The notes under the pieces were generated by a model. That model saw only the letters and a list, made by a program, of their open reading frames with translations. It made no database searches and was not told where the DNA came from. Positions 9,883 through 29,700 of a stretch of DNA of 64,000 nt are shown piece after piece (position 1 is the stretch's first letter; every line of letters starts with the position of its first letter). This DNA is from Rotaria sp. (Eukaryota). Location of the stretch: assembly GCA_905250055.1 (NCBI GenBank), contig CAJNOF010000004.1:839250-903249 (forward strand), in the 5' to 3' direction. Both the position numbers and the translations under genes were made by a program.

Positions 9883-12040
9883 CTACCTTCGAAATGTTGA
9901 ATCAACTGTATTAACAGCTTCATCTCGACGTGCATCGTTTGGTCGATAAGCTTGTTGTCGATCGATAGCAACATTTAAATGTAATGGATCAACTTTATTA
10001 TTCATATTTTGTCCTGCTGGTGAATCATAATTTGGACCGAAAAGTTTTTCACCTGTTCTTTGATTCGATACTGAACCAGTTGATTTAGCATCTAGAAAAA
10101 ACAAAGAACGAAGTTGTTCAATAATATTATAGAACTAAACAAATCGAATGCATTACCTGAAATTGTTTTAGTTATTGAATCTATTGGATATCCATTACGT
10201 TTAAGTTTATCAATTAATTGAGATCGTTTATCATAGTTATTTGATTCATTTGTTTCAAAATTTTTTTGTACTAATGAATCATGTTGATTAAATCTATTTA
10301 AATCTTGTCCAGTATGATTCGTTTGTTGTTGATGTCTATAAGCAGCTTCTTGTATAAGTGGTTGAACATTTTCATGTAAAAAATCTTGTCGACGTTCAGT
10401 TTCTTGTTGAAAACTTTTTTTATGTTTATTGTCTTCAACTTGTTTTTGTAAATCTTCTAACCATTGACGACGTTCTATTTCTTTAGCAGTTTTAACATCA
10501 TCTTCAAAACGAACATCACCAAATAATAAATTTCTTCGCATTGCAGCTGGAATATGTGTTTGATCACTATGAATATTTGTAGATGGTAATGAATATGAAG
10601 AATTATCAGTATGTTGTGGAATTGGTGGACGATATGATACAGTATTTGATGGTATTTGCTAAAAAAATAAATAAATTAATCCCATTTGAATTCAATAAAA
10701 AGAAAATAGAAAAACAAACAGATGCTCGCGATTGATTTTCATTGATATTAGGTGCACCACCACCTGGACGACCAAATGGATTCCAAACTGGTGGTTTTTC
10801 CGCTAAAAAAATAAAAATTTAGATAAGGAAATCTTTCAATTTGTTTATAATATAAGGTTTCGGTAATTCGAAATTTGAGCAAATTTTTTTTTTGCCATGA
10901 TTGGATAGAGATCGTCGACAAAGGTATAAAAATGTTGCTTCTATCATATTCAGACAAAATCGATTTTTTTTGACATGATAGCAAAAAAGTCATAAAAGCA
11001 GCTTTGTATTTAGAGTCAGCAAGGCACAAACTCTTTTCAGGATATTCAAAACTCATTTGGGTCTACATCTATCATGTAGTTCCAAATCAAAAGCGATTTA
11101 TCAATTGGAAAACTTCATTTGTTAGATGAACCATATGTCAGGCTGTTCGAAAAAATAAGTAAGAGGGATGTAAGGATTGTAATTCAGTTTTGAGTATTAA
11201 GTATACTGTTCAATGCAGATTTTTGTAGCATGCATAGATTTTTTCCTTACTATATAATGAGTAAAAACAAAAAAAAAATTCAGATAAACTTGAGGGCTGT
11301 CGAAGCTTTATGTGTTTGGCGTTTATCAATTTTCTTACGTTTCACTTACAAAAACATCGTGTGAATATGTCAACAATGACCATTGTTTAGGTAATTTGAC
11401 GATCTCTATTCAAGCATGACAAAAATTTCTAATTGCTAGCTTCTTACAATTTTCTTGTTTCCATTGTTGTTGTTTTTTCTCCATTAGTTGTGTTTTCAAA
11501 GCATCATGATTTGGATCTACTAGAACAATACTCAATACTGAGTTTTCTCTTGGGTTTTTTTTATTTACTTTCGTTGACTTTTGGTGAAATATCATGTTGA
11601 TGATCATTAGATTTAAATGATTGTGGAACTGAGGGTACAGATGGTGGTTTATTCGTTGTTGGTGGAAAATCATATTGGAATGTTGATCGTTCTTAAAAGT
11701 CAGAAACAAAATATGAATTTAATTTCTTTTTGTATTTTGATGATACCAGGAGATACAGAAGTCTTTCTATGACGAGGTGATAATTGATGTTTAAGCTGAT
11801 CATATTCAATTTCTAATTGTAATCGTTCAATTTCAGCTTTTTCTCGAAGCCATTTTTGACGTTTTTTTTCAGCCATTACACTTAAAACTTGTTCTCGTGG
11901 TGTAACATGAACTGGTGGAGGTGGAAGAGGTTCAGGTGGTAAATCTAATTTAGGAACAAGGGGCGGAGCTGTTGTTTCAGTATATTGTCGTTGTTGCTGT
12001 TGCTGTTGTTGTGATGGTGGTGGTGGTTCTTCTACAACAA
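9883..12040 (-). CDS. Multi-exon gene for a coiled-coil protein with a duplicated KRQ(K)WL…EL motif and a tentative CCDC66-like domain. Main exons at ~11750-12040, ~11410-11709 and ~9883-10640, with small introns.
   Basis: Minus-strand frames read …PPPPVHVTPREQVLSVMAEKKRQKWLREKAEIERLQLEIEYDQLKHQ…, …LMEKKQQQWKQEN… and …AAMRRNLLFGDVRFEDDVKTAKEIERRQWLEDLQKQVEDNKHKK…RSQLIDKLKRNGYPIDSITKTISGN / AKSTGSVSNQRTGEKLFGPNYDSPAGQNMNNKVDPLHLNVAIDRQQAYRPNDARRDEAVNTVDSTFRR*. The charged heptad-like composition indicates coiled coil. The CCDC66 assignment rests only on remembered motifs. Confidence 0.4.
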
Positions 12041-12179
12041 ATTAAGAAAAGACTTTTTTTTTTAAATTAAAGATTTTCAATCTACGTTTGATTTCTGTGC
12101 TGGTTTTATTCTCGTCTAAAATATAGCTAAATTATTATTGAAAAAAAAATCTTTATTTTGCTTTACTTTTTGAGTTTTC

Positions 12180-12628
12180 TTTTACAGCTTTGACAAGTTC
12201 AGCTAATTCATCCATAGTCATATAAACTCCTAATGTTGAACCATCATCATTAACTCGTATTTTATTAGTTGATTGTTCAGTTTTAGTTTTTTGTTTATTT
12301 GTTCCATTTGGTATAGGAGATTTTTGATTATTTATTTTCGTTTTTTGTTGTTCTGTAAAACGATTCGCCGTATTTATTGCTCGACTCTTTCTTTTGGATT
12401 TTGTTTTTTTGGAAGACTCATCTTCAATAAATTAGTATTAAAATATCAACAAAAATAAATATAGTCATTAACAAACCATTCGTATCAAAAAATATTTGTG
12501 GTTTTCCATCGATAATTTGTGTACGAAATTTCATTTTATCGCTTTCTAATTAAATAAAATGAATATTAAAAACAATTTTTTTTTATTTCATACGAATTGG
12601 ATCAGTTTTAACAGTTGTAGCAGCCATT
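12180..12628 (-). CDS. Candidate 5' exons, either of the adjacent coiled-coil gene or of a separate small gene. Proposed parts: ATG at 12628, MAATTVKTDPIR | ESDKMKFRTQIIDGKPQIFFDTNG | DESSKKTKSKRKSRAINTANRFTEQQKTKINNQK…RVNDDGSTLGVYMTMDELAELVKAVKENSK.
   Basis: An ATG with a short exon is followed by gtatg. There is a second micro-exon and then a 245-bp open frame ending at a donor. The join phases were not rigorously verified. Confidence 0.25.
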
Positions 12629-13025
12629 TATACGATTTTACCAAGGTTTCAAAAATCTAAAAACTATTCATATGTTTTCATTTAAGTGGAGTTCAATGTC
12701 GACCTTCAAGTGGTGCAGTAAAATTTATTCCTCTTTGTTTATATTTTCAACGCGCATGCATGTTTTTTTCTTCATCCATGAGTACCTATTTTGGTCATGG
12801 TTACTTAACAATAGCCTTCATTTTGTTAGTAAAAATTTTTGTCTGTAAGAAAAAAAATATTTATTACGTTATTTTCTATTAAATTTTAAAAATTACTTCA
12901 TATTAATTATTGGAATTAATTAATATTGAATTGAATTATTTGTTCGTTGCTTAGCAACACAGTCACATCAAAGATCACCATCATTTTTATATCTAATTTT
13001 GTTTTGATCTTTTTTTCAGTGAGCT

Positions 13026-13876
13026 ATGGCATCGTTAACTGTAAAACGAACAACACCAACAATACAAAAGCGTATTGATAATCATGCACAATCATTTCCT
13101 CCGTTAGATTATTCGTTTCATAATGCACAAAAACTTGAAGGTAGAACAGTTGATTTTTGTTTCTTGTAGCATAAATTTTTGTTCTTTTGTTTATAAATAG
13201 ATGCGGTTGCTGAACCGCGTGTAGTACCAGGTGGACCAAAATTGATAAAACAAGGTGATCGATATCATTCGCATGGTATTAATTTAAATCATAATTCTTT
13301 AAATGGTCCTTTGGAAACATTTCCGGAATTTATACGAACGACACTTGTCGATCCGAATGCTCTTTCAACATTAGATTTATCATTTAATGAATTTGCAGAA
13401 ATTCCTACAGTAAGAAAAAAATTAAATAAAACAAAAAATTTTAATGACATCTATAAATGAGTGACTCAGATTTTCAATAGGAAGTAATAGATGTCTCCAA
13501 AGTTTTTTCGTCCTTCTTTATTCACTCATTTATTGGTATTTTTTTCTTTTTTCATACATCGATTTCTTTTTCTTTCTAGGTAGTAACACAATTTCCATCA
13601 CTAAAATATTTTTATTTTCATAAAAATACGCTTAGTGATGTAACCGAAGTACAAAAATTAGTATCATTAAAAGAATTGAAATATTTAACATTACATGGTA
13701 ATCCAATTGAAATAACTGTGCCTTATTTACGTTCATATGTTTTATGTTTATTGCCTGATTTACGAAGTTTAAATTGTACACCTGTAACCAAAGGTGATCG
13801 AAAAATAAGTGAGGTGTGGGGAGGCATGAATAAAAATTTACTTCCGAAAAACTTGAATAAAATTTTAAAGAAATAA
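13026..13876 (+). CDS. Leucine-rich repeat-containing protein 51 (LRRC51)-like, 3 exons: 13026-13140, 13201-13409 and 13580-13876.
   Basis: The spliced product is MASLTVKRTTPTIQKRIDNHAQSFPPLDYSFHNAQKLE/DAVAEPRVVPGGPKLIKQGDRYHSHGINLNHNSLNGPLETFPEFIRTTLVDPNALSTLDLSFNEFAEIPT/VVTQFPSLKYFYFHKNTLSDVTEVQKLVSLKELKYLTLHGNPIEITVPYLRSYVLCLLPDLRSLNCTPVTKGDRKISEVWGGMNKNL…*. Splice phases are consistent: phase-1 donor gaag|gt with acceptor aatag|at, then phase-0 aca|gtaaga with ctag|gta. Similarity to LRRC51 as remembered includes PPLDYSF, LHGNP…YVLC…VTKxDRxxAEVW. Confidence 0.7.
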
Positions 13877-13918
13877 ACATATATATATATCTACCATTTT
13901 TTAGATATAAATTAAAAA

Positions 13919-14374
13919 ATGGCAGCTGCTCCCAGTCGACAAACCCAACGCATAGAAAAGGATTTAAACGCATTAAATACCAACCCTTTACCATTTATCC
14001 AAAATTTAAACTTGGCATTTAACGATGGTGTTAATGAATTGACTGGCACATTAATTGGCCCTGATGAAACTCCATATGCTGGTGGTCATTTTCGTTTTAT
14101 AATAAAATTTCCTCCTGAATATCCATTTAAACCACCTGAATTTTACTTTATTACAGCGATGTGCCATCCAAATGTTCATTCAAAAACAGGCAATGCATGC
14201 CATGATCACCTTACTGCTACATGGGCACCAAGTATTACACTCGCTAAATTATTAACTGAAATGCATTCATTATTGGAAAAACCAAATTATGAAATACCTC
14301 TTGAAGATGATCCATTAAATGAGAAAAATGCAGACAAAGCTCGTCTATGGACAGATCAATTTGCTCAACCATAA
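13919..14374 (+). CDS. Ubiquitin-conjugating enzyme E2 (UBC fold, UBE2L3/UbcH7-like), 151 aa, intronless.
   Basis: The sequence runs from ATG to TAA. MAAAPSRQTQRIEKDLNAL… carries the UBC core: PYAGGHFRFIIKFPPEYPFKPPEFYFIT…HPNVHSKTGNACHDHL…WAPSITLAKLL. That is an HPN motif plus an active-site Cys 9 residues downstream, and PEYPFKPP as in UBE2L3. Confidence 0.75.
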   Translation: MAAAPSRQTQRIEKDLNALNTNPLPFIQNLNLAFNDGVNELTGTLIGPDETPYAGGHFRFIIKFPPEYPFKPPEFYFITAMCHPNVHSKTGNACHDHLTATWAPSITLAKLLTEMHSLLEKPNYEIPLEDDPLNEKNADKARLWTDQFAQP

Positions 14375-14816
14375 AAAGGAACTAATAATGCACAATGGTT
14401 GTGCACATTTAGTCGTTTATATATTCTTTTTTTTATTGTCTTCATTTCATTTTTTGTGAACAATCTAGCCGACTTTAATGATTGATCTTATTTGTCCCTG
14501 TGATTTTAATCGATACTTTTTTTTAAAGCCATTTATAATCAATAAATTTTATTCTAGATAGTTGCATTTACATGTATTCATATAAGATATACTCAAAATT
14601 GAATAGTAGAGAAAATTATGACGAATTAAATGTAAACATTCGTCATCATCTTGTGTTAGCTATACTTTCGTCATACTGGCAGAAATAGCTTGCGCTGAGT
14701 GTATAATAATATTATCTATGAAGTAACGTGAGATTATAAAAAAAAAAAAAAAACAGATAAAAGTTACGATATTTATCAATATTTGCTGAGTATTCTTTTC
14801 TCTTTTTTAAATAAAG

Positions 14817-15191
14817 ATGAAAACAATGGATAATTTTTATGATGATAAAACAGTACCAAAAATTATGAAAAATTTAAATACAAACTATTCAACTGAACTA
14901 GCAGAATTAGTTGATATGACTTTTGGTCCAAGACCAGAAGCTGAGCTTCAACGACTTACAACCGCTGAAGTTATTGCCATAGGTTCATTTGGTCTTCGAC
15001 TATTATGTAATTATCATCGATGGGAAACAGCCGAAAAAAATGATCGAATGTTTCATGAACATATTGATGCAACAACTCGAATTTTTACAATTCCATTTCC
15101 TATAGAATCTAATTCAAAAGAAGAGCTTTTATCAATTATTGACAAAATGATGAATGAAGCGAGGACAAGTTATTTAAAGGGTTTTAACTAA
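14817..15191 (+). CDS. Hypothetical 124-aa protein, family not recognised.
   Basis: The ORF runs from ATG to stop on the same strand as, and immediately downstream of, the two preceding genes. A pyrimidine tract plus AG sits just upstream of the ATG. The composition is not low-complexity: …FGPRPEAELQRLTTAEVIAIGSFGLRLLCNYHRWETAEKNDRMFHEHIDATTRIFTIPFPIESNSKEELLSIIDKMMNEAR…. Confidence 0.35.
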   Translation: MKTMDNFYDDKTVPKIMKNLNTNYSTELAELVDMTFGPRPEAELQRLTTAEVIAIGSFGLRLLCNYHRWETAEKNDRMFHEHIDATTRIFTIPFPIESNSKEELLSIIDKMMNEARTSYLKGFN

Positions 15192-15239
15192 ATACACAGA
15201 TGTTATAGTTATATTTTATTGCCAAAATAAATCTTTTTA

Positions 15240-15870
15240 GTGTACTCAAAAAGTGAGTACACTACTAAAATCGATCTGTGTGTCCGTCCGTCCGGCCGTC
15301 CGTCCGGCCGTTAACACGATAACTTTCGAAAGGAGAGTCAGATTGCGATGAAATTTTCTACACAGCTTAGTCTTGACAATATCTCGGTCGAGTTCGAATA
15401 TGAGAAGGATCCGCCAAGAAATGGCTGAGTTATCGAAAAAATTGTGATTTTTGACCAGACCACCCCTGAGGGGGGGTACGGAGATTTTTCGAAAAAAACA
15501 TTTTTGCTCATAATTATTCACAAAATATATAAATCGACTCAGTTTTTAACGCTGATTCTGAATCTGATATTAGTTTTGAACTGAATCATAGTTTTGTGTC
15601 CTCAAAAAGTGAGTACACTATAGAATAGTCAGTGTGTCCGTCCGTCCGGTTGGCTGTTTACATGATAACTTTTGACAGCAGAGTCAGATTGCGATGAAAC
15701 TTTCTACACAGCTTAGTCTTGACAATGTCTCGATCGAGTTCGAAGATGAGAACGATCGGCCGAGCCGTTCCTGAGTTATTGCAAAAATACCCATTTTTCT
15801 CTATAGCTTTCTGTGGAAAAATGGACCCATCGCGACTTTCGTAAAAGACTTTTCCTATCATAGTCAATTA
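15240..15870. repeat. Two tandem, diverged copies of a ~300-bp interspersed-repeat-like (SINE-like) unit, at ~15240-15530 and ~15597-15870.
   Basis: Both copies start ctcaaaaagtgagtacact…gtgtgtccgtccgtccgg…ataacttt(c/t)ga…agagtcagattgcgatgaaa(t/c)tttctacacagcttagtcttgacaat(a/g)tctcg(g/a)tcgagttcgaa(t/g)atgaga. Identity is ~85-90% over ~200 bp. The ORFs drawn through them repeat LIFELDRDIVKTKLCRKFHRNLTLLSKVI and are spurious. Confidence 0.55.
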
Positions 15871-17039
15871 AAACCCCAACTATTATATACCATTCGATAG
15901 AGAATTTCAAGAACTACAAAATGATATATAAAGCATAAAGAAACAAGAAGGTTGACTTACCAATGACAAGGATAATTAAAGAGAACTAGGTTATATTTTG
16001 GTCCACGATCTAATTGATCCACAAATAGAGCTTTATCTTCTGGTCACACTGATGATACTTCGAGGTTTTCAGATATGGAGAACTCGAATGTGTACTGCAC
16101 TTCCATCGAAATACTATTAGTTGTGCAGTGACCAATAGAAATGAAATTATAGGAAAAACGACTTTCTTAGGGTAAATCAAGGGAAAGAGTTCAAACTTGA
16201 GCTGTATTCGGTCCCATGTCCTATTGGTTTGGCAACGCGCAATAGAAATCAACATTTTAAATGGTAGATTTCACAGTATAATTTTGATATTCAGACAGTC
16301 TAGGATGATTGATTTGTATGATTCACTTTTTGAAGTACACATAACTCTCGGATTTAAATCCGAAGTTTCCGCATTTATTATTAGATTTAATCTTAGATTT
16401 AAGTAACGTTATTATTATTTCGGATGTATCAAAAACAGTGTTAGAAGTTTTTAATTTGCTTATTAAAAAAAAAACTTAAGAAAACTTTCACTCTATATGG
16501 TCTCATAGGATATACAATACTTTATATTTCTGTGATATTAGATCATTGTTCAACTAATATCGTAGTAATAAAATTTCGATAAGAGCTCTTTGTTTTGATA
16601 AAACAATTGATCAATTTTCTCAACGAAAGAAGATTATTAAAATAATGTGCCATAAATGAAATTAAAAAATGTAATTAAGTGTGAATAATCAGAAGGATGA
16701 TTTCGAATCTTTAATAAAGTTGTTTCTGCATTTATTCTAAGTTCCATCGACACCATTCCTTTTATATAATCTAATATGTATTACGCAGCTAGGGTTAATA
16801 ACAAAAAAAACATCAAGACAAGCATACGTATTGAAGACAAGATGTTTTCTAATATTTCCACCAGATATCATAACAAACAGCTTTTCTGGAGATTACATTA
16901 TTATGATATTTATTGAAGATAACTCCTACATTGTTAGAGAAGAAAAATGTCGATCTATTCAAACATCGAAATAATACAAATTAGTATTGGGTATTTGTAA
17001 AACAAGCGAACACCCACAAACACTGCCAAATCGGAAAGT

Positions 17040-18145
17040 AATACCACTAATAGATAGAGCTCCCCAATCAGACAAACATGTCACTTTTTGTACTCACTGT
17101 GGCTGAACAAATAGTGTCTCATTTTGTATGGAGTTTATTCCCTTTGTACAGATTTTTGACATTAAGAATATTAATGGCGAGAAATGCCCAATATTTGTCG
17201 CAAATAAACTGAAAAAATATTTAGCGGTTAAACGCGCTTAAAAACATAAAATACACGCCCAATTATGCTAATTTTTCTCACGATTGTTCATATTACTCTT
17301 CCCACTGCAAAGATATAGCCTTTCGCTACAAATACCCAGTCTTAATTCAACAAGTAATTATATTTTACTTTCGAAAAGGTATGATGTTCTGTTTTTAGTC
17401 TTTGCCACAGATTTGTCAAAAACGAATAAAAGTTATTTAAAATAAGGACTTTGAAAATTTTCTCGATTATCTATAAAGTTATGTAGTAATTTAGATTTTT
17501 CGTATAAACTTTTCTAAGTAGCATAACGATTGCATTTTCGATTACATATGAAAGCTTACTTAACATAAAATGACAGAACAGGAAATAAAAAAATCTAAAT
17601 TACTACATTATTTTATTTATACTTGAGAAAATTTTCAAAGTTCTCATTTTAAATAACTTTTATTCTTTCTTGACGAACCTGTGGAAAGACTAAAAACAGA
17701 ACATCATACGTTTTTGAAAGTAAAATATAATTACTTGTTGAATTAAGGCTGGGAATTCGTAACAGAAACCTATACCGCTGCAGTAAGAAGAGAACGAGCG
17801 GAAAATACGAAAATTTTTATAGTCTAATTGCATATATTTCCATCTCTCTTAACTCGAACGCATGAAAGGACTATCGATGGAGGTGTCTATCTTGTTAATT
17901 GCTCAGACTAGGCATACTCGACTAAAATTTAAGCTGGCACCGCGCCACGTTTCAATAGAGCCACTCAATTCACATAAGAAAAAGTATGTTTCAAATTAAA
18001 GGATAACATTTCACAAAACCATCCACGATACAATCGGTTTTCAACTTGTGAGAGCATAGAATCCAAATTCTAACTTTTGAAAACATTGTTTTTAATTTAA
18101 AACGCATTCTTTCGTATGTAAATTGGGGAGCTCTATCTAATCAAC
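17040..18145. repeat. Long foldback inverted repeat (~500-bp arms, ~90-bp central loop at ~17500-17590), mobile-element-like.
   Basis: Inner arms 17330-17500 and 17592-17762 are near-perfect reverse complements (cttaattcaacaagtaattatattttactttcgaaaa… vs …tttgaaagtaaaatataattacttgttgaattaagg). The outer arms are more diverged but still align (ctcttcccactgcaaagatatagcctttcgctacaaatacccag vs rc ctcttcttactgcagcggtataggtttctgttacgaattcccag). The termini are atagatagagctccccaat at 17050 and attggggagctctatctaat at 18121. Confidence 0.6.
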
Positions 18146-18519
18146 ACGAGGAGAAAAAGAAATCTACTGAAACTTTGTTTTGCGATTATCTTATCCATAT
18201 TGTAACTAGCCAAAAAATCGAATATCTGGGTTCCTGTATATCAATGACAACCTATATTTTTAAGTTTTTGATTTGGCGATCAGAGCTGTAATTTGACTCG
18301 AATATATTTAGTGTTAGCAACTAACAAGGTAAAACTCCCATTGCGTGACACAAAAAAGTATTTTATTCTTCATTTTGACATTAGCAATTTTCTAAAACAT
18401 CTGAACTCACTGAAAAAAGAATATATCTCTCTTTAAGGTTTAAATTTCTTCGCAAAAAATATATTTAAAAAAGAAAAAATCCTATCTCATATTCCAATAC
18501 ATAAACTCGGCACTAGTAC

Positions 18520-18660
18520 AATTCGTCGCACGACTATTCGTCGCAATCAATTCGTCGCCCGACAGTTCGTCGCGATCAATTCGTCGCAGAATATTTTCTT
18601 TCGTTCTGTTCATCGCGAACAATATCATTGCGATCAATATCAGAGATGCCAACAAGCCAC
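18520..18660. repeat. Left terminal/subterminal inverted repeat of the MULE, containing about 5 tandem CAATTCGTCGC subrepeats.
   Basis: acaattcgtcgc acgactattcgtcgc aatcaattcgtcgc ccgacagttcgtcgc gatcaattcgtcgc, then the segment shared with the right IR. Confidence 0.6.
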
Positions 18661-19189
18661 TTTTTTCCGGCCTGGCCTGATCTGATCTGCAGGCCAAACC
18701 AGGCCAATTGATGTTTCTGATTTTTCAAATCCATTAAATTCCATAACTCTACATTAATGCATGTTTCCAATTTTAATTATTTATTTAATTTATTTTCATG
18801 AAGATAATGAAATAACAAGTTTTTGCACAAAATAGCAAATTAAAACAAAGAGACAATCATCTTAAATATTTTTCATGCAAGAAAGACTTGAATTTACAAG
18901 ATTTTTTGATGATATCAGTACTTCTTCGCATAATCGAAAGATATTTAAGTATAATAACAAAAACAACATATGATTCGGGATACGACGAAGAATTAAAAGA
19001 AAATATAAATCCAAAAATAGATCAATATGAACCAACAGGAGATGATTTATTATTATCAACAATATCATATTGTTGTTTTTCATGTTTTAATAAATAACAT
19101 ATTCGTTCACTAGAATATGATAACGAGTTTGACGAAAAAGATGATGAAACATTTGTATTTGATGATGTAGTAGTAGATCAAACAGGACA

Positions 19190-19335
19190 GGTGGATAAAA
19201 TCTGTATATCATCAATTGACATTGTTGTTGAAATAGATGAAGCAGGAGAGATTGATAAGATATGAATATCATCAATTGACATTGAAGAAATATATGAAGT
19301 AGAAGATGTTGATAAACGATGAATATGTCCAGTTG
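19190..19335. repeat. Internal ~60-bp tandem repeat (about 2.5 copies) inside the MULE.
   Basis: …tatcatcaattgacattgttgttgaaatagatgaagcaggagagattgataag / atatgaatatcatcaattgacattgaagaaatatatgaagtagaagatgttgataaacg / atgaatatgtccagttgacattg. Confidence 0.5.
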
Positions 19336-20135
19336 ACATTGTTTGTTTAAGTTGTTGCCTATAAAAACAAATTGTAAAAAGAAATGTGTTTTGTCTTTCA
19401 ATTAAACAAAATCATTGTTTACTTTATTTTCGCTGAAATAAATCAACCATAAATATTGTCTCCTCTCCTTTATTCATTCAATTCGTTTACTCTTGTGGTC
19501 TATACTATTCATCAATTATGAATGACGAAGTTAAAAGTGAACAAAATCATCAACTTGTGATATCATCTCATGTTTCAAGATGACTACTAGAGAAATGAAT
19601 ATCATATCGCAGCCAGGCCACCCATTTTGGCCTGGCCTGGCCTCTTAACCAGGCTGAACATTATATGGACGGATCAGGCCAGGCCAAAATTTTAAAATTC
19701 AGCCTGGCCAGATGGCCTGGTCTGGCAGGCCACCCGGTGCCTGTCAGGCAGCAGGCCAGGCCGGCAGCTCTGATCAATATGTCGATCTCGCTCTTAAATA
19801 ATTTTTTTGTATTACCAATCCGAATAAAAAAAAAGAATGAAAAAATGTGAAAGATGTACTGAAGAAAAGATTGCACTGAAGATGATAACTTTAATTGGAA
19901 AAACGGATCAATAGAACATGTTAATCACGTGTAGTCATGATAGAGCTAAAGTTTTCGAAAAATAATTAGTTTTGTCAATCGTTTAATGAATTTCGATATT
20001 ATCTAGACTAACGATAACACTGATCCAATGTTCTTCATTATGTGACCGGGAAATAAAAAAAACAAATATTGATGATGTTGAAAATATATTTCATTTCTCA
20101 ATCTAAACGTTTGCTGTACACAACACTTCCAAAAA

Positions 20136-21625
20136 ATGTCTCAAATCCAGAAACTTCTTTCTGAAAAAGGAAAACCAATGCTCCTCCACGAAAGTTACAT
20201 CTACACTGTAGAATGTACAACAACGACGAAATTGATTTTTCGATGTCAGAATCGTGATTGTAAACGTAAATTCACTTTGGCTATCATCAATCAATTAATT
20301 AAAATGAAAACCATTTATCAATTAAGCACGTTGTCATATCAATTTATCCATGGACGTGTTTCTCTCTCAACCAACATCACATGGTCATGCTCCACAACCT
20401 GATCGTGTTCCAGCTATCCAATTAAAGAATGAAATTAAAGCTTGTGCTGCGACAACAGATGAATCATCGAGCTCAATTCTTCATTCGGCCTTACGAACAT
20501 ATCCTCTAAGTGCCGCTGGTCAACTTCCAAGAAGTGACGCACTTACACTCACAGTTCGACGACAACGTACTGCTGAAACACTCGATGCCAATGGTCGTTT
20601 ACCAGAAAAATTAAGAAAGACATATCGTGATGAAGATTTTATCTTGCACGACGACGAACATTTAATTATCTTTACAACAAAAAACAATTTATCTATTCTG
20701 AAGCAAAACAAAAATTGGTTCGCTGATGGAGCATTAAAAGTGAGCTATTCATTGAATGTGTATCTTTTTTTTTCTAATTATCTTTGATGTAGGTGTGTCC
20801 GGATAATTATTATCAACTGTTTGCATTACATGCAATGATGACGAATGCAATTATTCCTCTCGTCTATGGATTGTTAATTGGTAAAAGCAGCGATGATTAC
20901 AATCAATTCTTCGAAAAATTATTTGAACAAGACAATTTTCAACCTGAATCAATTATGACTGATTTCGAAACTGGTACAATCAAATCAGTCAAAGAGATGT
21001 TACCAAATGTTTTACACAAAGGTACGTTCTAGTCTATTCACAAAAAAAAGATAATTAAAATGTTTGTTATAGGATGTCTCTTTCATTTTTCACAAGCAGT
21101 ATGGCGACATGTTCAAAACAAAGGATTGGCAACCAACTATAGAGAAGATGAGTCTTTTTGTTTAAATATAAAAAAATTAATTGCTCTTGCTTTTGTTCCA
21201 GTAGATGAAGTTACAACTGCGTTTGACTTAATTGCCGATCAATTCGACGATGACACCGACGATTTACTCGATTATTTCGAAAAAACTTGGATTGGTGAAC
21301 CAAAACGAAGAGGTAATTTTTCTTCTTCATTCTTGAGAAATTTTAAATGTATTTGATAATCTTAGGAACTGGTCGGAAGAAACCTCAATTTGATCACAAA
21401 TTATGGAATATTCACAATCGTGTAATCGCTGGTGTACCTCGATCCAATAATTCAGTGGAAGGCTGGCACAATGCATTTGCCAATCGCGCCTCAATCAATC
21501 ATCCAAACATCGTGAAACTGGCAGACAAAATTCGTCGTGAACAATCAAAATTCGAAGTGGACATCGCAAAAATTCTCCAAGGCCACGATATCAAAAGACG
21601 AAGAAAGCATGTTATCGAAGATTGA
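20136..21625 (+). CDS. MULE transposase with an N-terminal FLYWCH-type zinc finger, split by at least 3 short GT..AG introns (~20760-20806, ~21022-21072, ~21327-21370) and probably another near 20274-20413.
   Basis: FLYWCH-like: KGKPMLLHESYIYTVECTTTTKLIFRCQNRDCKRKF. MULE core after splicing: …NWFADGALKV|CPDNYYQLFALHAMMTN…, …NVLHKG|CLFHFSQAVWRHVQ…, …AGVPRSNNSVEGWHNAF…. These match the conserved MULE blocks (FADGTFK-CP-FYQL-T-H, C-FHF-QA-WR, TNN-EGWH). Donors aaa|gtgagc, aaag|gtacgt and agag|gtaatt and acceptors with pyrimidine tracts were seen. The frame changes between listed ORFs are resolved by these introns. Confidence 0.65.
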
Positions 21626-21840
21626 ACGGACGAATTACTCGGTTGGTCAACGCATTTGACTCATCTGAACTGGATCAATGCTTAAAAAATATCGCAGTCA
21701 ACATTACTCTTTAGATTTTTTTTTCTTTCTTTTTTTTGTATATAATTTGTTTATCGTTATCTCATGTATAAGTACAATACACAAAATAAAAATGAACTAA
21801 TTGATCAATTTCACATCTTTGAAAAAAAATGTAATTAAGA

Positions 21841-21935
21841 GCGATATCGACATATTGATCGCAACGATATTGTTCGCGACGAACAGAACGAAAGAAAATA
21901 TTCTGCGGCGAATTGAACGCGATGAATTGATCGGT
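21841..21935. repeat. Right terminal/subterminal inverted repeat of the MULE.
   Basis: Reverse complement of the left IR at 18577-18655 with few mismatches. Confidence 0.6.
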
Positions 21936-22093
21936 CACCTACGATTCAACTGTGATCATGATATCAAAAGACCAGGACCAACATTCCACGAACGATGTAC
22001 TAAAAGTCCATTTCTTTGATACTCGAAATCAAAATAATCCGATATCTGTTTTATCTTACACGTTATTTCTTTTTTACGATCAATATTATCAAT

Positions 22094-23660
22094 CTAACAA
22101 TCAAGCGCAAAAACGACTTTCACTTCTTTGTGCGAGTGGCATGCTTCGACAAACTCAGAAGCACATGTTACATTATGATTTTCATTCAAATATTGGCATA
22201 TATTTGACTTAATAACAGCAGCATAATGGTGACAAGAGTCTTTGCCACCTTGTGGATCGCAAAAATCAATGCTTCTAATTGCTATGCTTGCCTTTTCCAA
22301 TATTTGTTTGGGCGACACAAGTGTGTTTACCGAATGATAGCAATCTGCGTTGTCTGATCGGATAAACGCTTTTTCTGTCTGTGGATCAGTTTTCTTGATA
22401 CGGCATAAAATGTCGTTCAAGGTAGCGAGGATCATTTCACTGTCCTGCGTACACTAATCGAAAACATGTACGAAGACCTTATAATTACAAGAATTTGTCT
22501 CTTTTTGATGATTGGTACTGTAATCATCTTCATTTTCTTGAAATTAATCAGTCATTTCATGTTCATTGACTTGTTGGCTATCATCTGAGAAATCATTCTT
22601 TTGGTCGTAATAGTTGCTATTACTTTCTACAATCACATGTTTTTTGCATAACAACAGTGATATGCCAACTGATGCCTCGTTTATCGAAAAATTCTGACTG
22701 TGGTTCTCGACTTTTGATGAGAAGAAATTTCATGGCTCAATCAAGATTGAGATAAATCTCATTATTGTGTAGTTGTTCAAGAAAGTACTCTCGACACAAA
22801 TCTTGATTGATAGATCTCAATAAGTGAACTTACCATTCTTCATTAGATTCATAATACAATCGGTATTTTTTCAAAGCTCGATCCAATAAGTCTTCTTTCG
22901 TTTCGGTTTTCTCGATTAGTCGTTCAATTTCATTCAGGGTGCTCGTTAGATTCGAACACTTAACATACGATTCATCGTGTTCATGATCACAGCCTTGGGC
23001 AAAATGACGTTGTTTTGGATCACTCAATATATAAATGGAGCAATCATCAGCGACATTACTCGATCTCGTTACGTACACTTTATAATCAGATTTCAAATAA
23101 AATCAAGCATGTTTTAAATTCTCAATAAATCGATCACTCTCAGTACATAGCATAGCGTTTTCTTTATTCATTTTTCCTGTATCGTCAAATGCTTCTCCAG
23201 CTTCAGCTACAAAGTAGTTGATACCTTGCGAAGACTTTCTTGTTGATGCTTTACATGTTTCGAAAATAGTAAATAGGCTACTCTTACCAAGTGATTCGAA
23301 ATGCGAACACATCTCATTACAGTAAACAAGATACTAATCAATAATATGAATTGGTCCCATGTTACTTATCATATTTGGAATGTACAGTTCAATTCCTGAC
23401 GACAGTTTCAAAACTTGTTCAGCACAAGGCAAATCTATACACACATGAGGCGAAACAATAAAGTCAACAAAGTGAGCGATTTGATGATCATCAAATCGTT
23501 GCAGAACCTTTGGAATTGTGTCTACTCTCGAATCGACACCATATTTGGCAGCATGCAAACATGCAACAGAAAATCTGTAACTAGTTAAACCTGGTATGAA
23601 GAACTGCATGAGCTTTAACGATATTTTCGATGGAACAATTGAAAGTAAATGGTGATCCAA
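22094..23660 (-). pseudogene. Chain of four consecutive minus-strand ORFs in shifting frames (23660-23334, 23312-23103, 23096-22830, 22435-22094). Likely a decayed or intron-containing coding region, possibly a second transposase remnant.
   Basis: The ORFs are long, non-low-complexity, collinear and separated by single stops or frameshifts. The last segment carries FIRSDNADCYHS…DFCDPQGGKDSCHH, faintly reminiscent of DD(E/D) transposase second-aspartate blocks. No confident family assignment was possible. Confidence 0.25.
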
Positions 23661-26051
23661 AGTTTTCGACGCCTCTCAGTAAATCGATGATATCTATAAC
23701 AAACTTATGTGAAGTTATTGATCAAATCATATCATTTTGCAGAGGAAGATTAGAGCTCTCATCTGGAAAAAAAATAGTTCAAAATACATAAATTTATTAC
23801 AATCTTATGGTCATTTGACTAATCTTGAGTGAACACTTTTGCGTTACATTTTTTGAAATAGTCAAAGAAATTTTTAATGTTTGAGTCGTTAAAGTCGAAC
23901 CAAATATTATTTTCTACATGTTTTTAATAGACATTTTTTTATAGTTCGATAGAGGTCAAAAAGCATTAGAAAAATGTGAATATCAAGAAAAATTCGAATC
24001 CTGTTTTCAACATAAAACTCGAATGATACCACGCAAACTAATAAAAATCTTGCATAGCTTTCATGAGATAGTATGCTTAAGTCCCAAAGACTTTAGCTGA
24101 TCGACTATTAATTGATGTTTCGAGATGCAGGGTTACACACTGAAGCAGGAAATAACTCTTCTGAGCTACCTGAATACATGGAATAGTCAACCAACTCAAA
24201 CTTTTGAAAAATCAACCTACTCTCTAATATTTTATATATGAAATTGTTCTTAGTTTTTCTGGTTTCCTTTAAGATTCATATTCAAAATAAGATCAAAAGC
24301 TTTGTAAACATACATATTCTTGTAGAGCTTATCGAACTCTCTCGAATCGTGGAAAAATGTCTAGAAAACAGTATGACACTTAAGATGTTACAAACGTATT
24401 TTGTTTATTTCAAAAAATGTAACGTAAAAATTTTCTCTCAAGATTGGTAAAATGACCATAAGATTTTAATAGATTTAGGTATTTCGAACTATTGTTTTTT
24501 AGCTGATAGCTCTAATCTTTCTCTATAAAATGACATAATTTGATCAATAACTTCGTATAAGTTTGTTATAGATATCATCGATTTACTGATAGGGGTCGAA
24601 ATGTTTGGACCACCCTTTAGATCTCATCTCATTTGCCATGATTCAGCATTGGTATATGCTTCTGAAATATCACTCACTACTAGACGAAAATTTCCATCTA
24701 AATCAATGTTCAATTCTTCAGTATTTACGTTGCTAAATGAGTCTTACATATGTATGTCAGCATCACTCGATGCCATCAACAATGTAGTTGATCGCGCTAT
24801 GAATTTTACCAAATTTACATATCTCAAAAAAGGCTGACATTTTTGGCATGTACCGAACTCAAGTAGGGCCACTCACTGTCAAAAGATATGGGTGTTCATG
24901 GGTCTTCGTTGATTCGAAAAAAGTGTACATTGGAAAATCACTCCTATATTTAAGCATTTTGGGTGTTCGTTGGTGCTCGTAGAATAAGCTCACTGAGCTC
25001 TATCTACTAGTGGTATCACTTTTCGATTTGGTATTATTCGCTTGTTTGACGACTACCCATTATCTTTTAGTGGATAATAAAGAATCCTGTATGTTTATTT
25101 CATTTATAGAATATATATGGATGAGAAAAATATTTATGAAGAGCAAAGTTGAAAAACGGAAAGAATTTAAATGAACAACTCAAATTGAATCATGAATATG
25201 TTTCTTATCAACTTTTTTGGAAATGTGATAAGGTAAGTGAAGAGAATACCCCGACGTAAATCTTGCTATGCCTTATAACGATTGATCCATAGCATCATAT
25301 TCATTTTAGTAATCGAGTGTTTATGTTTCAATTTTTGACGATAGCAATTTTAGGCATCAGAACTTTCATAAGAATAAAAATTTCGACATTAGTTGCATAA
25401 ATCTAGTTGAAGAATCATCAATTATCACAGAAATGTAAAGCTTTGTTTCTAATATCAGACCATATAGAGAAAAAGTTTCTTTCAGCTCTTTATTACAAAT
25501 TAAAATATCGTTGTTACTACTTTTGGCATGCCCTCTGTTGTTTACAATTTATACGAATATATTATTAGATTTTGGGGCATGAGTTTATGGTTCCATTCCT
25601 AGGAACCATGGCTTCTTATTCCTCAAAGCCTGCTCATGTCACGAAAACCGGATCAGTTTTAGCGGTAAACCATGGTTAACCGCCCGTTTTTGCCAGGTTT
25701 TCATTATATGGGTGGATATCCCTAGTTATAATATAACATTTTGTGCAAGATTGAAGTATTGGAATAGATGTGGTCTTTTCTTGAAAAAAAAAGTTTCCAT
25801 AGATTAAAATGCAAAGGATTTAATATGATGAATGAGATAAAAGAAAAAAATTTGTTTAAATCATAAAATAATCAAAATGTTTTATTCTTTCTACAAAACT
25901 TATAATATTGTAAGATTCTATTCTTTGCACTGAAAAATAAAAGATTTCATATTTTTTGAATTAAATGCTAGATACTTTGCCGAATATTCATATTATTTTA
26001 TTTGATATTAATCAATAATTATAAAAAAAAACTAGTGTAATTCATTGTTTT

Positions 26052-26765
26052 TTAATCATTTAGTTTAGATTCAAAACTCATAGAAAGCTTAAGCTGTTTT
26101 TGTTGCAAATTTCTTTTGATTCTGTTTATCACTGTAATCGTTGATGAATCAATTTTATCTGCATAATAAACTCGATAAATATAATAATTTGATGGATGTT
26201 GAAGAAGATATTCAACTTCACCAATAGATACTGGAAATGTATTTTGATCATAGGATCGAGTTGTTTTAACTTCAATAAATTCTTCTCGATGATTTTCTGT
26301 CTTAATAATCATATGAATATCATAAGGTCCACCTGATTCTCCTTGTTGATTGATCCATTTAATCTCTTCATGAGGATATTTCCATTTAAGATAACGAAAA
26401 ACGAATTCTTCACCTTGACGACCTGTAATGAGATCAGCTTCAATACCAATAGAACGAGATGAATTTGTCATGGATAGTTCATCAATTGAAGAAGACGTGC
26501 TTTGATCTATATTTGTCAGATTCGAAACAACAATACGTTCGAAATTAGCAGGTGGTAACGAAGTAACATCCGAAAAAACCATGGGAGCACGTTGTTGAAT
26601 AAATTGGCCTTTGGATGACCGTATCTCATCTTTATTTGATTCGTTGTTGCTCGAATTTACTGCGAAAAAAATAATATTCAATCTGTTGTTCCAATTCAAT
26701 ATATATATATATTGAGCCAAATCATTCGCTAGTAACATGTTGGAATACGAATATTCAAACAACAA
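26052..26765 (-). CDS. Terminal exon of the giant gene encoding the DUF3883-like domain.
   Basis: See the motif string in the parent feature. The exon ends at a stop with no downstream continuation found. Confidence 0.6.
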   Translation of the reverse strand: MLFEYSYSNMLLANDLAQYIYILNWNNRLNIIFFAVNSSNNESNKDEIRSSKGQFIQQRAPMVFSDVTSLPPANFERIVVSNLTNIDQSTSSSIDELSMTNSSRSIGIEADLITGRQGEEFVFRYLKWKYPHEEIKWINQQGESGGPYDIHMIIKTENHREEFIEVKTTRSYDQNTFPVSIGEVEYLLQHPSNYYIYRVYYADKIDSSTITVINRIKRNLQQKQLKLSMSFESKLND

Positions 26766-29700
26766 AAATGCTCTTATGACTCATATAGAGATGTTCAAAA
26801 CCCATTTGTAATTGGTACGAATTCTTCTTTAGAATCTCTAAAAAACCGATTTTTAAGGAAAAGTGTTTTCGAGTTCAATCTTGCTGAAAAGTTCATTATA
26901 GATGCAGTTCGTGCTATAGAGACTATCCTAGAGTTTTTAGTTTGTTTTCTCCTATTGTTAGAAAGATATTTGCTAATTAGTTGTAATTAATTAATAATCA
27001 TCTGAAAGAACGCACATTTTCCTATATGTCTGTGCTAAAAGAAATTAATCCGAAAAACCCTTGTAAAGAATCCGAGTTAAATGAAAGATGGATATGTGCC
27101 GTTCTGTTTGAAATGGCTCATATATATGCATTATATATGTTTCTCACCGTCAGTATGTTGGGTAATTATGCCCGTGGGTACTACATATTCGTTATCCTGT
27201 TGATCATGCTGTTGTGGAGCTCGATGGCTTTGATCATTCGAATGTGATTTTGATGATGCATTTTCTCCTTCAGCTGAATTATGTGGTTTTGTTTGTGTTG
27301 GTACTTTTGAAAGTCTTTTTTCAGAGATTTCATTCGATTCGATAGCGCCAGCTCTTGCAGGAAAACTGGTTAGGTGATTGGTATTTTCTTCGTTTGTTAC
27401 TTTTTTTGACGCAAGCTTTGGTCGAGCAGAAGGCTCCTCCATCAATCGTTCAATTTCCTCATATGTAACCTTAGGCTTCTCGTGCTGTATTCCTGGTGGA
27501 ATCGGAACATTGATTTTTATTTCCTTTGGAATAATCCATTTAGGTTCATAATTCTTTGTCCATGTTTCTCGTAACTTAGCTAGACCATCTTCACCATCGG
27601 TCTGATATCTTTGTAGAATCTTTTTGATACATGACGAAAGTTGTAATCGAGTCGTCTCGTCGTTTTCAACAATAAAATCAACCATAGCATCGATATAACG
27701 CATTTCAGATGTTTCATATTTTTTTAGGATATAAAATTTGCCTGATTCTTCATCAATATAAGTATCTCTACTGTACGATGTTGATGATGATTTAATTATA
27801 TTAGACCCATAACAATGTGATAAATGTATACGATCAACACAAACAAAATGCATGCGAGCAAATACAGACGATAAATAAGTGGATCGAGTAGTCGATATAA
27901 TGTCTTTGTTTAAAAGAAAATATTGAATAAGATCAATAGAACAACTGTAGAAATCAGTTAGATTTGTTGATGATTGTTCATTTTCAACATCAACTTTAGT
28001 TTGAATGATTTTATCAAGATTTTCAATAGAAAAAAGCGAACGGAATTGTTCTTGAAAATTAGTATCAATACCAAAACCTAAAAATAATAATGACATTAAT
28101 TAAATATTCAATTTGTTCAGATTACCGGGTAATTTAATAATTGATAAAATATCTGAAAACAGATTGGCAATGTCTATATCATGTGGATAATAGGGATGAT
28201 CGGTATATTTTACTAATTTTTGTTTATCACCCATGCATGGAATGAATGCAACATCAAGACATTTTTCTGTATGGAAAAAAAGAAAATATTTCTTTTGAAT
28301 TTTTTGTTTTTAAAAAAAACATTTTCTTTACCTCGAACGTCATTTTGTTTGTTCTGTTCTATGGCTAATTTTGTGATTATTTCAATTATCTGCCAAATCT
28401 TATTAATATCTTGCTCAGTTGATAATAATGGTAAATAATCATCCACTGTTGGATGTAATTCAACATGAAGTATTTTAAGAAAGAATGAATTTAAAATAGA
28501 ATCGTCATTATAATAGGATCTTATAGGAATACGACCATTTGAATCTGCAATTGTATCTTGTAATGACAATAGAGATATTGGATCATTCCAAAAAGTCTGT
28601 TGAACGAATAAGAAATCACCAGTAGTTTGATTTCGTGGAATAAATATGATTGGCCATAAACAAAAACGACTGAGAAGAGTACAAGTTTCATTGTTTGACG
28701 CAAGAAAACTATAGATTTGACGAAAATTTTCAATCGTGTCAAGACATGATTGACGAAATCCATTTGGAAGAGTGCAAGGAATACTGAAATAAAAGCCGTA
28801 TATTTAATGCATAATGTTTGCCCTGCGAAAACATTTTTCGTTCTTAAGAAACTGATTTCAATGATATTATGCTGACAGATATCACATAATGTTCTAATAA
28901 AAACTCTACAAGAATTCTGGTTCCTGTAATAAATATTTGACTTATCTATCGAATTTATAGTATTTGTATTTGCTAGAAACCCGTGTAGGATTTCAGATTT
29001 TTTGGAAAACTCATATTTCCAGATATTGAACTGATATTTTGTGAATGTAAAGAAATCAACTAGACTAGTTTCCATTAAACAATACAGAAAGTTTGAACAA
29101 AATCTCTTTGAAATATGAAGCTGTCAAAAATGCATGTGATATATGCTATCTATGAGAAAGAGTCTAGACCTGAATGGAAACCGATACCCTTTTAGAGTTT
29201 GTATTAGAATATTATGTAGTACCTATAGGGAAAATATCATTGAAATCAAAAGGAGCTACATGAAGAGGGTCTCTCATTAGTTATTAGAGTATTTCCTAGA
29301 CATCAAACATGTTATATGTCTGTATTAATTAAATGTCATCTATGTGAAATATATATAAATTTAAAAAGCCTATGTGTCAGACTTTTTTGCACATATATTT
29401 TCTTTCAACTATTGCATAAAGTCAATTCGATGACCTGTTAGTAATATTATACTATAATATAACCTTTAGTGTCCTCAAACCATAATTCGAGTATTGTGGT
29501 AAAATAATAAAAATTCGTTTCAGAAAAAGTCGTTACACAAATCATTCCTCAACCTAAATTCGAGACCAATGGACAATAGTTTAATAATTTTATTTTTTAA
29601 AATTTGTAGAATTCTCTATCCAATTGTTGTACTATATACTTACGTATCCAAAGTATTTGCCTGATTGACTAGGTTCCATAATGATTCACTATCAAGATTG

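Follow-up and report, generated by a model that had tools for sequence, protein, structure and literature searches.

The window, a 64-kb stretch of DNA from the bdelloid rotifer Rotaria sp. Silwood1, contains a Mutator-like element (MULE) of probable Phantom/Muta type at positions 18509 to 21939 of the forward strand. Its boundaries were set by termini that are conserved across the family. They enclose 3,431 bp including a nested insertion, or approximately 2.3 kb without it, in agreement with the 3.4-kb unit between inverted repeats proposed in a preliminary description of this DNA. In the host genome, the copy is surrounded by remnants of other transposons. No other MULE fragments were detected in the 64-kb window by tblastn or self-blastn, and Rfam and tRNA scans of the same 64 kb returned nothing.

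The inverted-repeat arms at 18563 to 18640 and 21852 to 21929 span 78 nt with 92% identity (83 nt and 91.6% by blastn), close to the approximately 90 bp and 93% first estimated. A second pair of arms, at 19772 to 19808 and 21824 to 21860 (37 nt, 89% identity), extends the same inverted repeat, and approximately 115 nt align contiguously once the nested insertion is taken out. The complete terminal inverted repeats (TIRs) are 168 nt on the left, where the repeat is split by the nested insertion, and 116 nt on the right, and both are long TIRs of the kind found in MULEs. The outer part of the left TIR (18509 to 18640, forward strand) consists of a 10-bp terminal motif followed by a subterminal array at 18519 to 18587 of five 11-bp units of the CAATTCGTCGC type, set apart by 3- to 4-bp spacers with a period of 14 to 15 bp; TRF reported periods of 15 and 29 for this array. 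The inner part, which the nested insertion has displaced, lies at 19781 to 19816 on the same strand and pairs with 21824 to 21860. The right TIR (21824 to 21939, reverse strand) comprises the terminal motif GGTGACCGAT, subrepeats, and an inner block. The subrepeats reported earlier within the inverted repeats are thus present at both ends, five on the left versus two or three on the right, and their number differs among copies. Within the 64-kb window, the core octamer of the subrepeat, TTCGTCGC, is confined to the TIRs. Composite ends of this design, a 10-bp motif and then 11-bp repeats with 3- to 4-bp spacers, are the end architecture of Phantom, Muta, and Tm1 elements. The left terminus, GGCACTAGTAC, and the right terminus, GGTCACC (reverse complement, GGTGACCGATC), match those of six other loci (designated L003, L004, L006, L008, L009, and L015), and similarity among independent copies ends precisely at GG. 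Divergence between the two TIRs was rejected as a measure of age, since even the copies from Rotaria socialis that are 100% identical to one another show differences between their two ends.

The insertion that interrupts the left TIR is a nested, nonautonomous hAT-like element of 1,132 bp at 18641 to 19772 (CAGAGATGCC ... GGCAGCTCTG). It is flanked by a perfect 8-bp target duplication, ATCAATAT, at 18633 to 18640 on the left and 19773 to 19780 on the right. Its termini, CAGAGATGCC versus CAGAGCTGCC, match at 9 of 10 positions; hAT elements have YARNG-type ends, and the termini and the 8-bp duplication are both as in hAT elements. The nested element is missing from the independent copy L003, the TIR sequence of the window copy picks up exactly after the insert, and among the loci fetched the nested element was found only at this same locus. 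Two of its longer open reading frames (69 and 104 amino acids) gave no Pfam match. Tandem repeats of 57 to 60 bp, in approximately 2.5 to 3 copies at 19163 to 19341, lie inside it. The 60-bp repeats initially attributed to the MULE are real, but they sit in the foreign insert and not in the MULE proper.

The transposase gene and its product

The transposase gene is read on the forward strand in five exons separated by four predicted introns, all GT..AG, at 20266 to 20326, 20740 to 20792, 21022 to 21072, and 21313 to 21365, where at least three short introns had been expected. The prediction draws on a comparison of copies and on gene models of relatives. In alignments with seven other copies, indels are nearly absent from the exons except for one 2-bp insertion, the introns contain indels that are not multiples of three, and annotated homologs align over the intron junctions. 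Exon 1 (20136 to 20265) encodes the first half of a FLYWCH finger (C37 and C42), and exon 2 (20327 to 20739) encodes the remainder of the finger (H62 and H64), a linker, and the first catalytic aspartate, D177, in WFADG. The second catalytic aspartate, D238 in MTDFE, is in exon 3 (20793 to 21021), and a C(2)H motif, C259 plus H262 in CLFH, is in exon 4 (21073 to 21312). Exon 5, in its current reading (21366 to 21625), supplies W351 and the catalytic glutamate E369 in SVEGWH, and ends with a premature stop at 21623 to 21625.

All four of the conserved MULE transposase blocks singled out previously, FADGALKVCP, YQLFALHA, CLFHFSQAVWRHVQ, and NNSVEGWHNAF, were located in the spliced translation. 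The Pfam FLYWCH domain (PF04500), a zinc finger of the WRKY-GCM1 fold, matched residues 9 to 64 with 29.2 bits (cutoff, 23.6), as in Phantom, Muta, and Tm1 proteins, and the MULE domain (PF10551), diagnostic of the superfamily, matched residues 198 to 265 with 36.5 bits (cutoff, 27.6). With these matches and the four predicted GT-AG introns, the earlier reading as a Mutator-like DNA transposon whose FLYWCH plus MULE transposase gene is interrupted by spliceosomal introns holds. In an alignment of 49 sequences covering rotifers, crustaceans, molluscs, insects, and vertebrates, C37, C42, H62, H64, W174, D177, D238, C259, H262, W351, E369, G370, and W371 are invariant. The window copy keeps the entire DDE triad (D177, D238, and E369) along with C259/H262 and W351. 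The C259/H262 pair lies 21 residues past D238, and W351 is upstream of E369; according to PMC5499845, MULE and hAT transposases have a (C/D)(2)H motif 15 to 45 residues past the second D, and their E is preceded by a W. The best protein homologs are all from Rotaria species, with 81 to 99% identity. FLYWCH-MULE proteins from aphids show end-to-end similarity at 31 to 32% identity (E values of 2e-71 and 1e-76), and proteins from metagenomes match the transposase at 33 to 35% identity. A search of the PDB gave no relative at E values up to 1.

Other copies and the condition of the window copy

The same locus (L001) is present in a second assembly, GCA_905331515.1 (contig CAJNZC010000035.1), with 98.7 to 99.4% identity in both flanks. 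It was rejected as an independent copy for this reason, and its missing left end is an N gap in the scaffold. The searches retrieved no further locus above 90% identity; one match (P0010) is L001 itself, and another (P0021, L002) is a 1.8-kb contig that falls wholly within the element.

No target-site duplication (TSD) of 8 to 11 bp flanks the window copy, where CATAAACTC on the left faces TACGATTCA on the right. A scan at shifted boundaries yielded only 7- to 8-mers with one mismatch, at about chance level and in contradiction to the family termini. A search for a TSD displaced by a later neighboring insertion found no exact 9-mer and one 8-mer, in a host open reading frame at 26166, that we judged to be a chance match. 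L003 has no flanking TSD. At the family level, four copies have TSDs of 8 to 9 bp: L008 (GCTGCGATC/GCTGCGAGC, 9 bp with one mismatch), L013 (GATTCATA, 8 bp), L014 (CTGAAATTT, 9 bp), and L015 (AAATATTG, 8 bp). The preliminary description had looked to further copies and their TSDs for support; the same termini and 8- to 9-bp TSDs do occur in relatives, but the window copy is without a TSD. An empty-site comparison through a neighboring pseudogene family was dropped; the closest relatives have only approximately 70% protein identity, so the noncoding pseudogene flanks would not align.

A relative of 2,235 bp in R. socialis is 100% identical across four loci (L011 to L014) that represent at least three distinct sets of flanks. 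L011 and L012 have the right flank in common and not the left, and for that reason they were left out as evidence against TSDs; one of the two is probably a chimeric assembly over the perfect repeat. Relatives of the window copy are clearly mobile, and in R. socialis one subfamily seems to have been active recently. We infer the mobility of the window copy from that of its family, since neither it nor L003 has a TSD.

The one departure from the conserved exon structure is a frameshifting 2-bp insertion in exon 5, at 21593 to 21596 on the forward strand, where the window copy reads AAAA and other copies have two bases fewer; every comparison with the seven other copies shows the 2-bp gap. The insertion is also found in L001, which is the same locus in an independent assembly. 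It is absent from L003, L004, L005, L006, L007, L008, L009, L010, and L015, counted as eight copies, with L004/L005, L007/L008, and L009/L010 being same-protein pairs. The frameshift leads to the stop at 21623 to 21625, and the encoded protein has 423 residues and falls short of the full-length frame. The conserved C-terminal tail, KKACYRRLNGRITRLVNAFDSSELDQCLKNIAVNITL, followed by a stop codon (21601 to 21714, forward strand), is now out of frame and is kept in rotifer homologs and the aphid proteins. Because the insertion removes the last 36 conserved residues, including Y421 and N450 (at least 90% conserved), the window copy no longer makes the full protein; the conservation of the tail suggests that it is needed. 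L003, with identical exon boundaries, has an uninterrupted product of 452 residues.

The window copy also has the private changes T179A, F180L, and T192A at positions adjoining D177 that are at least 90% conserved. At family-invariant positions, it has 8 private changes in 133, compared with 1 to 10 in other Rotaria sequences and 35 in a sequence from Adineta steineri, a load that is not clearly higher than that of other copies. Given the frameshift, the split left TIR, the missing TSD, and the three private changes beside D177, the intactness claimed earlier could not be upheld, and neither recent activity nor domestication is indicated for the window copy.

Family assignment, alternative readings, and biological context

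We consider it very likely that the locus contains a cut-and-paste DNA transposon that was once autonomous and has since decayed, a member of the animal FLYWCH-finger group (Phantom/Muta/Tm1 type) within the Mutator superfamily. If the MULE were instead intact and currently autonomous, its 423-residue protein would be an active transposase, and the retained DDE triad, C(2)H motif, W351, and four zinc ligands, the canonical signals at the four introns, and the conserved terminal motifs would all fit. We find this improbable, since the frameshift loses a tail conserved from rotifers to aphids, with Y421 and N450, and the changes at T179, F180, and T192 sit beside D177. Moreover, an insert of 1.1 kb splits the left TIR, a TSD is missing, and a second locus above 90% identity was not retrieved. 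Somewhat less probable again is domestication, in which the host would have made the MULE into a gene of its own, such as one for a transcription factor with a FLYWCH finger or for a shortened transposase that serves as a repressor. An open reading frame that is mostly open speaks for domestication, as does the retention of the locus and its frameshift in samples that were assembled independently, but persistence across assemblies of one species is uninformative on selection. Family-typical TIRs still flank the gene, its neighborhood is made up of other transposon remnants, and it is one among hundreds of paralogs, several of which have TSDs; a TIR-less ortholog was not seen.

There is next to no chance that the inverted repeats arose by coincidence and do not delimit a transposon, an outcome that had been entertained at the outset. 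The absence of a TSD at the window copy would be consistent with it, but independent copies from four species end in these termini and subrepeats too, amid flanks that are unrelated and with TSDs of 8 to 9 bp, and these exclude coincidence. The suggested membership in, or close relationship to, the Curupira family of Schistosoma is just as hard to credit. It is favored by nothing more than that both are animal MULEs, a likeness to which Curupira-1 and -2 add a 9-bp TSD. According to Table 1 of PMC6446971, Curupira elements occur in platyhelminths, carry a SWIM finger, and lack TIRs, whereas in the rotifer element the finger is of the FLYWCH type and the TIRs are composite and 116 to 168 nt long. 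No SWIM match was found in the rotifer transposase with Pfam, the host is a bdelloid rotifer, and the close homologs are all from rotifers.

The placement of the decayed copy with Phantom, Muta, and Tm1 is suggested by its domain layout, its end architecture, and the similarity of its protein to those from aphids. Muta1 and Muta5 of Aedes aegypti are experimentally active MULEs (PMC5225508, PMC5499845) that Dupeyron et al. 2019 assigned to the Phantom family (PMC6446971). They have in common with the rotifer element an N-terminal FLYWCH finger, the DDE residues, a (C/D)(2)H motif, and the conserved W, as well as a size of approximately 2.3 to 3.5 kb and 8- or 9-bp TSDs. The likeness extends to TIRs of more than 100 bp that are built from a short palindromic terminal motif and 12- to 15-bp subterminal repeats with short spacers, and to a subrepeat number that varies between copies. 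Muta1 has 8- to 9-bp TSDs and a 145-bp TIR composed of a 10-bp palindromic terminal motif and 12-bp subterminal repeats with 3- to 4-bp spacers (PMC5225508). Unlike Muta1 and Muta5 as described in those papers, the element presented here has a rotifer host, four introns, and a defective copy; its two ends, furthermore, bear different terminal motifs, GGCACTAGTAC and GGTGACCGTAC. The Tm1 Mutator/Foldback elements of Meloidogyne root-knot nematodes likewise combine FLYWCH and MULE domains, contain nested insertions, and inhabit an asexually reproducing host (PMC3169594). Their asymmetric outer motifs (A1/A2) are followed by a variable count of 13- to 15-bp tandem repeats, and their 9-bp TSDs, which some copies lack, and TIR pairs with approximately 93% average identity are also reminiscent of the rotifer element (PMC3169594), which differs from Tm1 in phylum and repeat sequence. 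As characterized in PMC6446971 and PMC3169594, the Phantom subclass (Marquez & Pritham 2010) has TSDs of 8 to 10 bp and TIRs of 18 to 613 bp, and shares with the rotifer element animal hosts, a FLYWCH finger, and variable and Foldback-like termini.

By analogy with Muta1, the N-terminal FLYWCH zinc finger would bind the element ends, each of which in this family would present a short palindromic terminal motif and then an array of 11-bp repeats with 3- to 4-bp spacers. The DDE domain (D177, D238, and E369, with C259-x2-H262 and W351) may excise the element via hairpins on the flanking DNA, and the 3'-OH ends would be joined to a staggered target cut to give the 8- to 9-bp duplications. Since the outermost termini of the window copy remain family typical, an intact relative in the same species, for example L003, might mobilize it in trans. 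There is a slim chance that the copy is not simply dead, and acts as a tail-less FLYWCH-DDE regulator or repressor, comparable to truncated P-element and Ac products, or is moved by L003. If that were true, it would, taken with the R. socialis copies of 100% identity, point to a Mutator family that is active today and amenable to experiments, in an ancient asexual animal.

The assignment is thus corrected from a schistosome Curupira to a rotifer element of the Phantom/Muta type. The element is one ordinary representative of a many-copy family in bdelloid rotifers; it matters little alone and raises no new question. The FLYWCH-MULE family of bdelloid rotifers is diversified, and its end architecture is that of Muta1 from mosquitoes and Tm1 from nematodes. 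Because rotifers are not among the Phantom host phyla in Table 1 of PMC6446971, and because Mutator elements are unmentioned in the main text of a bdelloid transposon study (PMC7943196), the rotifer family could extend the catalogue slightly and could be a candidate for transposition assays.

Element ends, a nested insertion and the transposase gene

The inverted repeats claimed for this region in the preliminary description are real. The arms at 18563-18640 and 21852-21929 were 92% complementary over 78 nt, and blastn extended the pair to 83 nt at 91.6%. A second arm pair, 19772-19808 and 21824-21860 (37 nt, 89%), is the same repeat continued inward, the left pieces being parted by a 1,132-bp insertion. 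When the insert and one copy of its flanking duplication were taken out, the left and right arms were contiguous over about 115 nt. All copies compared begin at GG, and beyond the GG they share no similarity, so the termini are exact. With the termini fixed by independent copies, the element spans 18509-21939, a length of 3,431 bp that falls to about 2.3 kb once the insert is removed.

Two types of end were found. One reads GG[C/T][A/G]CTAGTAC followed by subrepeats and occurs at the left end of the window copy and in the independent copies L003, L004, L006 and L015; the other reads GGTGACCG[T/A/C][A/T]C followed by subrepeats and occurs at the right end of the window copy and in L003, L009 and L015. 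The terminal motifs, GTACTAGTAC and GGTNACC, are each palindromic. At the left end are five 11-mers of the CAATTCGTCGC type with 3- to 4-bp spacers (18519-18587) and at the right end two or three subrepeats, whose core octamer is confined to the element's ends within the 64-kb window. In a further Silwood1 copy, represented by L007 (3580) and L008 (2490 and 5055), the two terminal motifs have traded places with respect to the gene, with GGTGACC upstream and GGCGCTAGTAC downstream, as would be expected if TIR-TIR recombination had inverted the internal segment.

The insertion occupies 18641-19772, starting with CAGAGATGCC and finishing with GGCAGCTCTG; on either side of it stands ATCAATAT (18633-18640 and 19773-19780), a perfect 8-bp direct duplication. 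In L003 the outer part of the repeat joins the inner part directly, without the 1,132 bp, and the insert is therefore secondary. hAT elements typically have an 8-bp duplication and CAGAG termini, and we describe the insert, with its CAGAG...CTCTG ends, as a non-autonomous hAT-like element; a Pfam scan of two of its longer open reading frames (69 and 104 amino acids) gave no match. Its subtermini are rich in GGCCTGGCC. Between the window and L001, the same locus in assembly GCA_905331515.1, the nested element is 92% identical and differs in length, and the surrounding sequence is about 99% identical. The 60-bp tandem repeats first assigned to the MULE do exist (57 to 60 bp, 19163-19341), but they lie within this foreign insert.

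The predicted gene has five exons (20136-20265, 20327-20739, 20793-21021, 21073-21312, and 21366-21625) and a 423-residue product, in which the FLYWCH and MULE transposase domains proposed from the sequence both scored above their Pfam cutoffs (29.2 versus 23.6 bits and 36.5 versus 27.6 bits, respectively). The short spliceosomal introns noted previously are present in the model, numbering four rather than three, all GT-AG, with lengths of 61, 53, 51, and 53 bp. Annotated homologues align gap-free across each of the four junctions. When the nucleotide sequence was aligned with those of seven other copies, indels were nearly absent from the exons except at one 2-bp site, and every intron contained indels of lengths that are not multiples of three. 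Comparison of copies and homologues thus supports the four-intron predicted model. The codon split by intron 1 (20265/20327), Ala in most homologues, is CCA (Pro) here, changing CKARCH to CKPRCH; exon 1 ends in C, which weakens the context of the donor site.

Relatives and placement among MULEs

Every close homologue comes from the bdelloid rotifer genus Rotaria. Identity reached 97 to 99% for two partial proteins of Rotaria sp. Silwood1, one of which is encoded on contig CAJNZC010000035.1 of GCA_905331515.1, which is the window's own locus (99.4% identity over 11272-15726 and 98.7% over 18846-27442; the scaffold has an N-gap across 15727-18845). The host is accordingly Rotaria sp. Silwood1 or a very close relative and not Schistosoma. 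More distant full-length FLYWCH-MULE relatives, at 31 to 47% identity, were found in Adineta, crustaceans, molluscs, aphids, beetles, a butterfly, a pipefish, and a caecilian, and the aphid proteins align with the window protein end to end (31 to 32% identity; E values of 2e-71 and 1e-76). In a 49-sequence alignment, the zinc ligands C37, C42, H62, and H64, the DDE triad D177, D238, and E369, the C(2)H motif C259 and H262, and likewise W174, W351, G370, and W371 were invariant. MULE and hAT transposases have been described with these features, whose importance was demonstrated in Muta1 (PMC5499845).

Among known elements, Muta1 and Muta5 of Aedes and Tm1 of Meloidogyne are the closest. The Aedes elements have a FLYWCH finger, 8- to 9-bp TSDs, and TIRs of about 145 to 151 bp built of an 8- to 10-bp terminal motif and 12- to 15-bp subterminal repeats with short spacers (PMC5225508). 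Tm1 has asymmetric outer motifs, 13- to 15-bp repeats in variable number, 9-bp TSDs that are absent from some copies, a FLYWCH and MULE transposase, and nested insertions (PMC3169594). Muta and Tm1 fall inside or adjoin the Phantom subclass (PMC6446971). The suggested membership in or kinship with Curupira fails, since Curupira is described as a flatworm element that has a SWIM finger and lacks TIRs (PMC6446971, Table 1). On its architecture and sequence similarity, we file the rotifer element as a Phantom/Muta-type MULE. Rotifers are not included among the host phyla given in PMC6446971, and neither Mutator nor MULE is mentioned in the main text of the study of bdelloid transposons from which these genomes come (PMC7943196).

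State and surroundings of the window copy

The description of the window copy as intact was not borne out, given a frameshift, a split TIR, private substitutions, no TSD, and no sister copy among the loci retrieved. All homologues read ...GHDIK-TKKACYRRLDERITRLVN...NITL. In the window, an A-run at 21593-21596 has two extra bases, giving ...GHDIKRRRKHVIED and a stop at 21623-21625, and the conserved tail at 21601-21714 is out of frame. The same two bases are found in the independent assembly L001 and in none of eight other copies; being common to L001 and the window, they are a real mutation of the locus rather than a read error. Conservation of the lost tail, which includes Y421 and N450 (each at least 90% conserved), extends to aphids. 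The left TIR is broken by the 1.1-kb insert, and T179A, F180L, and T192A, at sites at least 90% conserved beside the catalytic D177, are private to this copy. Private changes affect 8 of 133 invariant sites, a load that is not exceptional.

No TSD was found at the window copy (flanks CATAAACTC and TACGATTCA) when alternative boundaries and displaced copies were also searched, and no second locus above 90% identity was among those retrieved. L001 was rejected as a sister copy, being the identical locus; L002, a 1.8-kb contig that lies wholly within the element, was not counted as a second locus. The preliminary description holds as an observation and in part as an interpretation: the type of transposon is a known one, the window copy is a defective member of it, and its host group is an unreported one.

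The MULE's right end lies 155 bp from a minus-strand pseudogene (22094-23660) with stops and a frameshift, belonging to a multicopy bdelloid protein family without a Pfam domain. Its relatives have 650 to 800 residues, some are named "C2H2-type domain-containing," and matches also occur in Nematostella and Actinostola; the pseudogene probably represents the transposase of another DNA transposon. Inverted matches enclose the region (16478-16556/25404-25481, 81%; 17026-17062/24995-25031, 92%), which also contains a 506-bp palindrome (17296-17792, self-complementary at 80%) and an inverted repeat (23646-23866/24400-24619, 86 to 87%). Remnants of transposons appear to be nested together between about 16.4 and 25.5 kb, with host genes, by the L001 annotation, on both sides (about 13000-15200 and 26050-28100). 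Those upstream encode an LRR protein, a ubiquitin-conjugating enzyme (UQ_con), and a 124-residue open reading frame, and downstream is a large SACS/NOV_C-type gene on the minus strand. An 88-nt direct repeat (15701-15788/15355-15442, 85%) lies at the start of the L001 scaffold gap.

Mobility of the family

The search for further copies with TSDs, proposed as a check, found 8- to 9-bp duplications at four other copies, though none at the window copy: GCTGCGATC/GCTGCGAGC at L008 (9 bp, one mismatch), GATTCATA at L013 (8 bp, perfect), CTGAAATTT at L014 (9 bp, perfect), and AAATATTG at L015 (8 bp). Judged from these sequences, the family is mobile. The 2.45-kb Silwood1 copy L003 (4339-6786), independent of the window copy, has an unbroken 452-residue FLYWCH-MULE frame with the same intron positions, and at its two ends it agrees with the window copy at 21 of 21 and 18 of 21 positions; it has no recognizable TSD. 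Flank decay, ectopic recombination between copies, or an adjacent deletion are possible reasons for the absence of a TSD at L003 and the window copy.

By analogy with Muta1 (PMC5225508, PMC5499845), we infer that the terminal motif and subterminal repeats would be the binding sites of the FLYWCH finger, that the DDE domain would excise the element via hairpins on flanking DNA, and that insertion would follow with an 8- to 9-bp stagger. What the sequences themselves show is that the residues concerned are present and conserved, how the ends are built, and how long the TSDs of the relatives are.

A 2,235-bp relative in Rotaria socialis is 100% identical at four loci (L011 to L014) with at least three different sets of flanks. 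L011 and L012, from two R. socialis assemblies, share an identical 600-bp right flank next to the same element and have unrelated left flanks, and a TSD was found at neither; either one assembly is chimeric across a perfect repeat or a rearrangement has taken place. The element has a full FLYWCH first exon, and its annotated protein (P0016) begins at an internal Met. Identical copies with differing flanks point to very recent transposition, and the 2,235-bp element is a candidate for an active autonomous MULE in an asexual animal.
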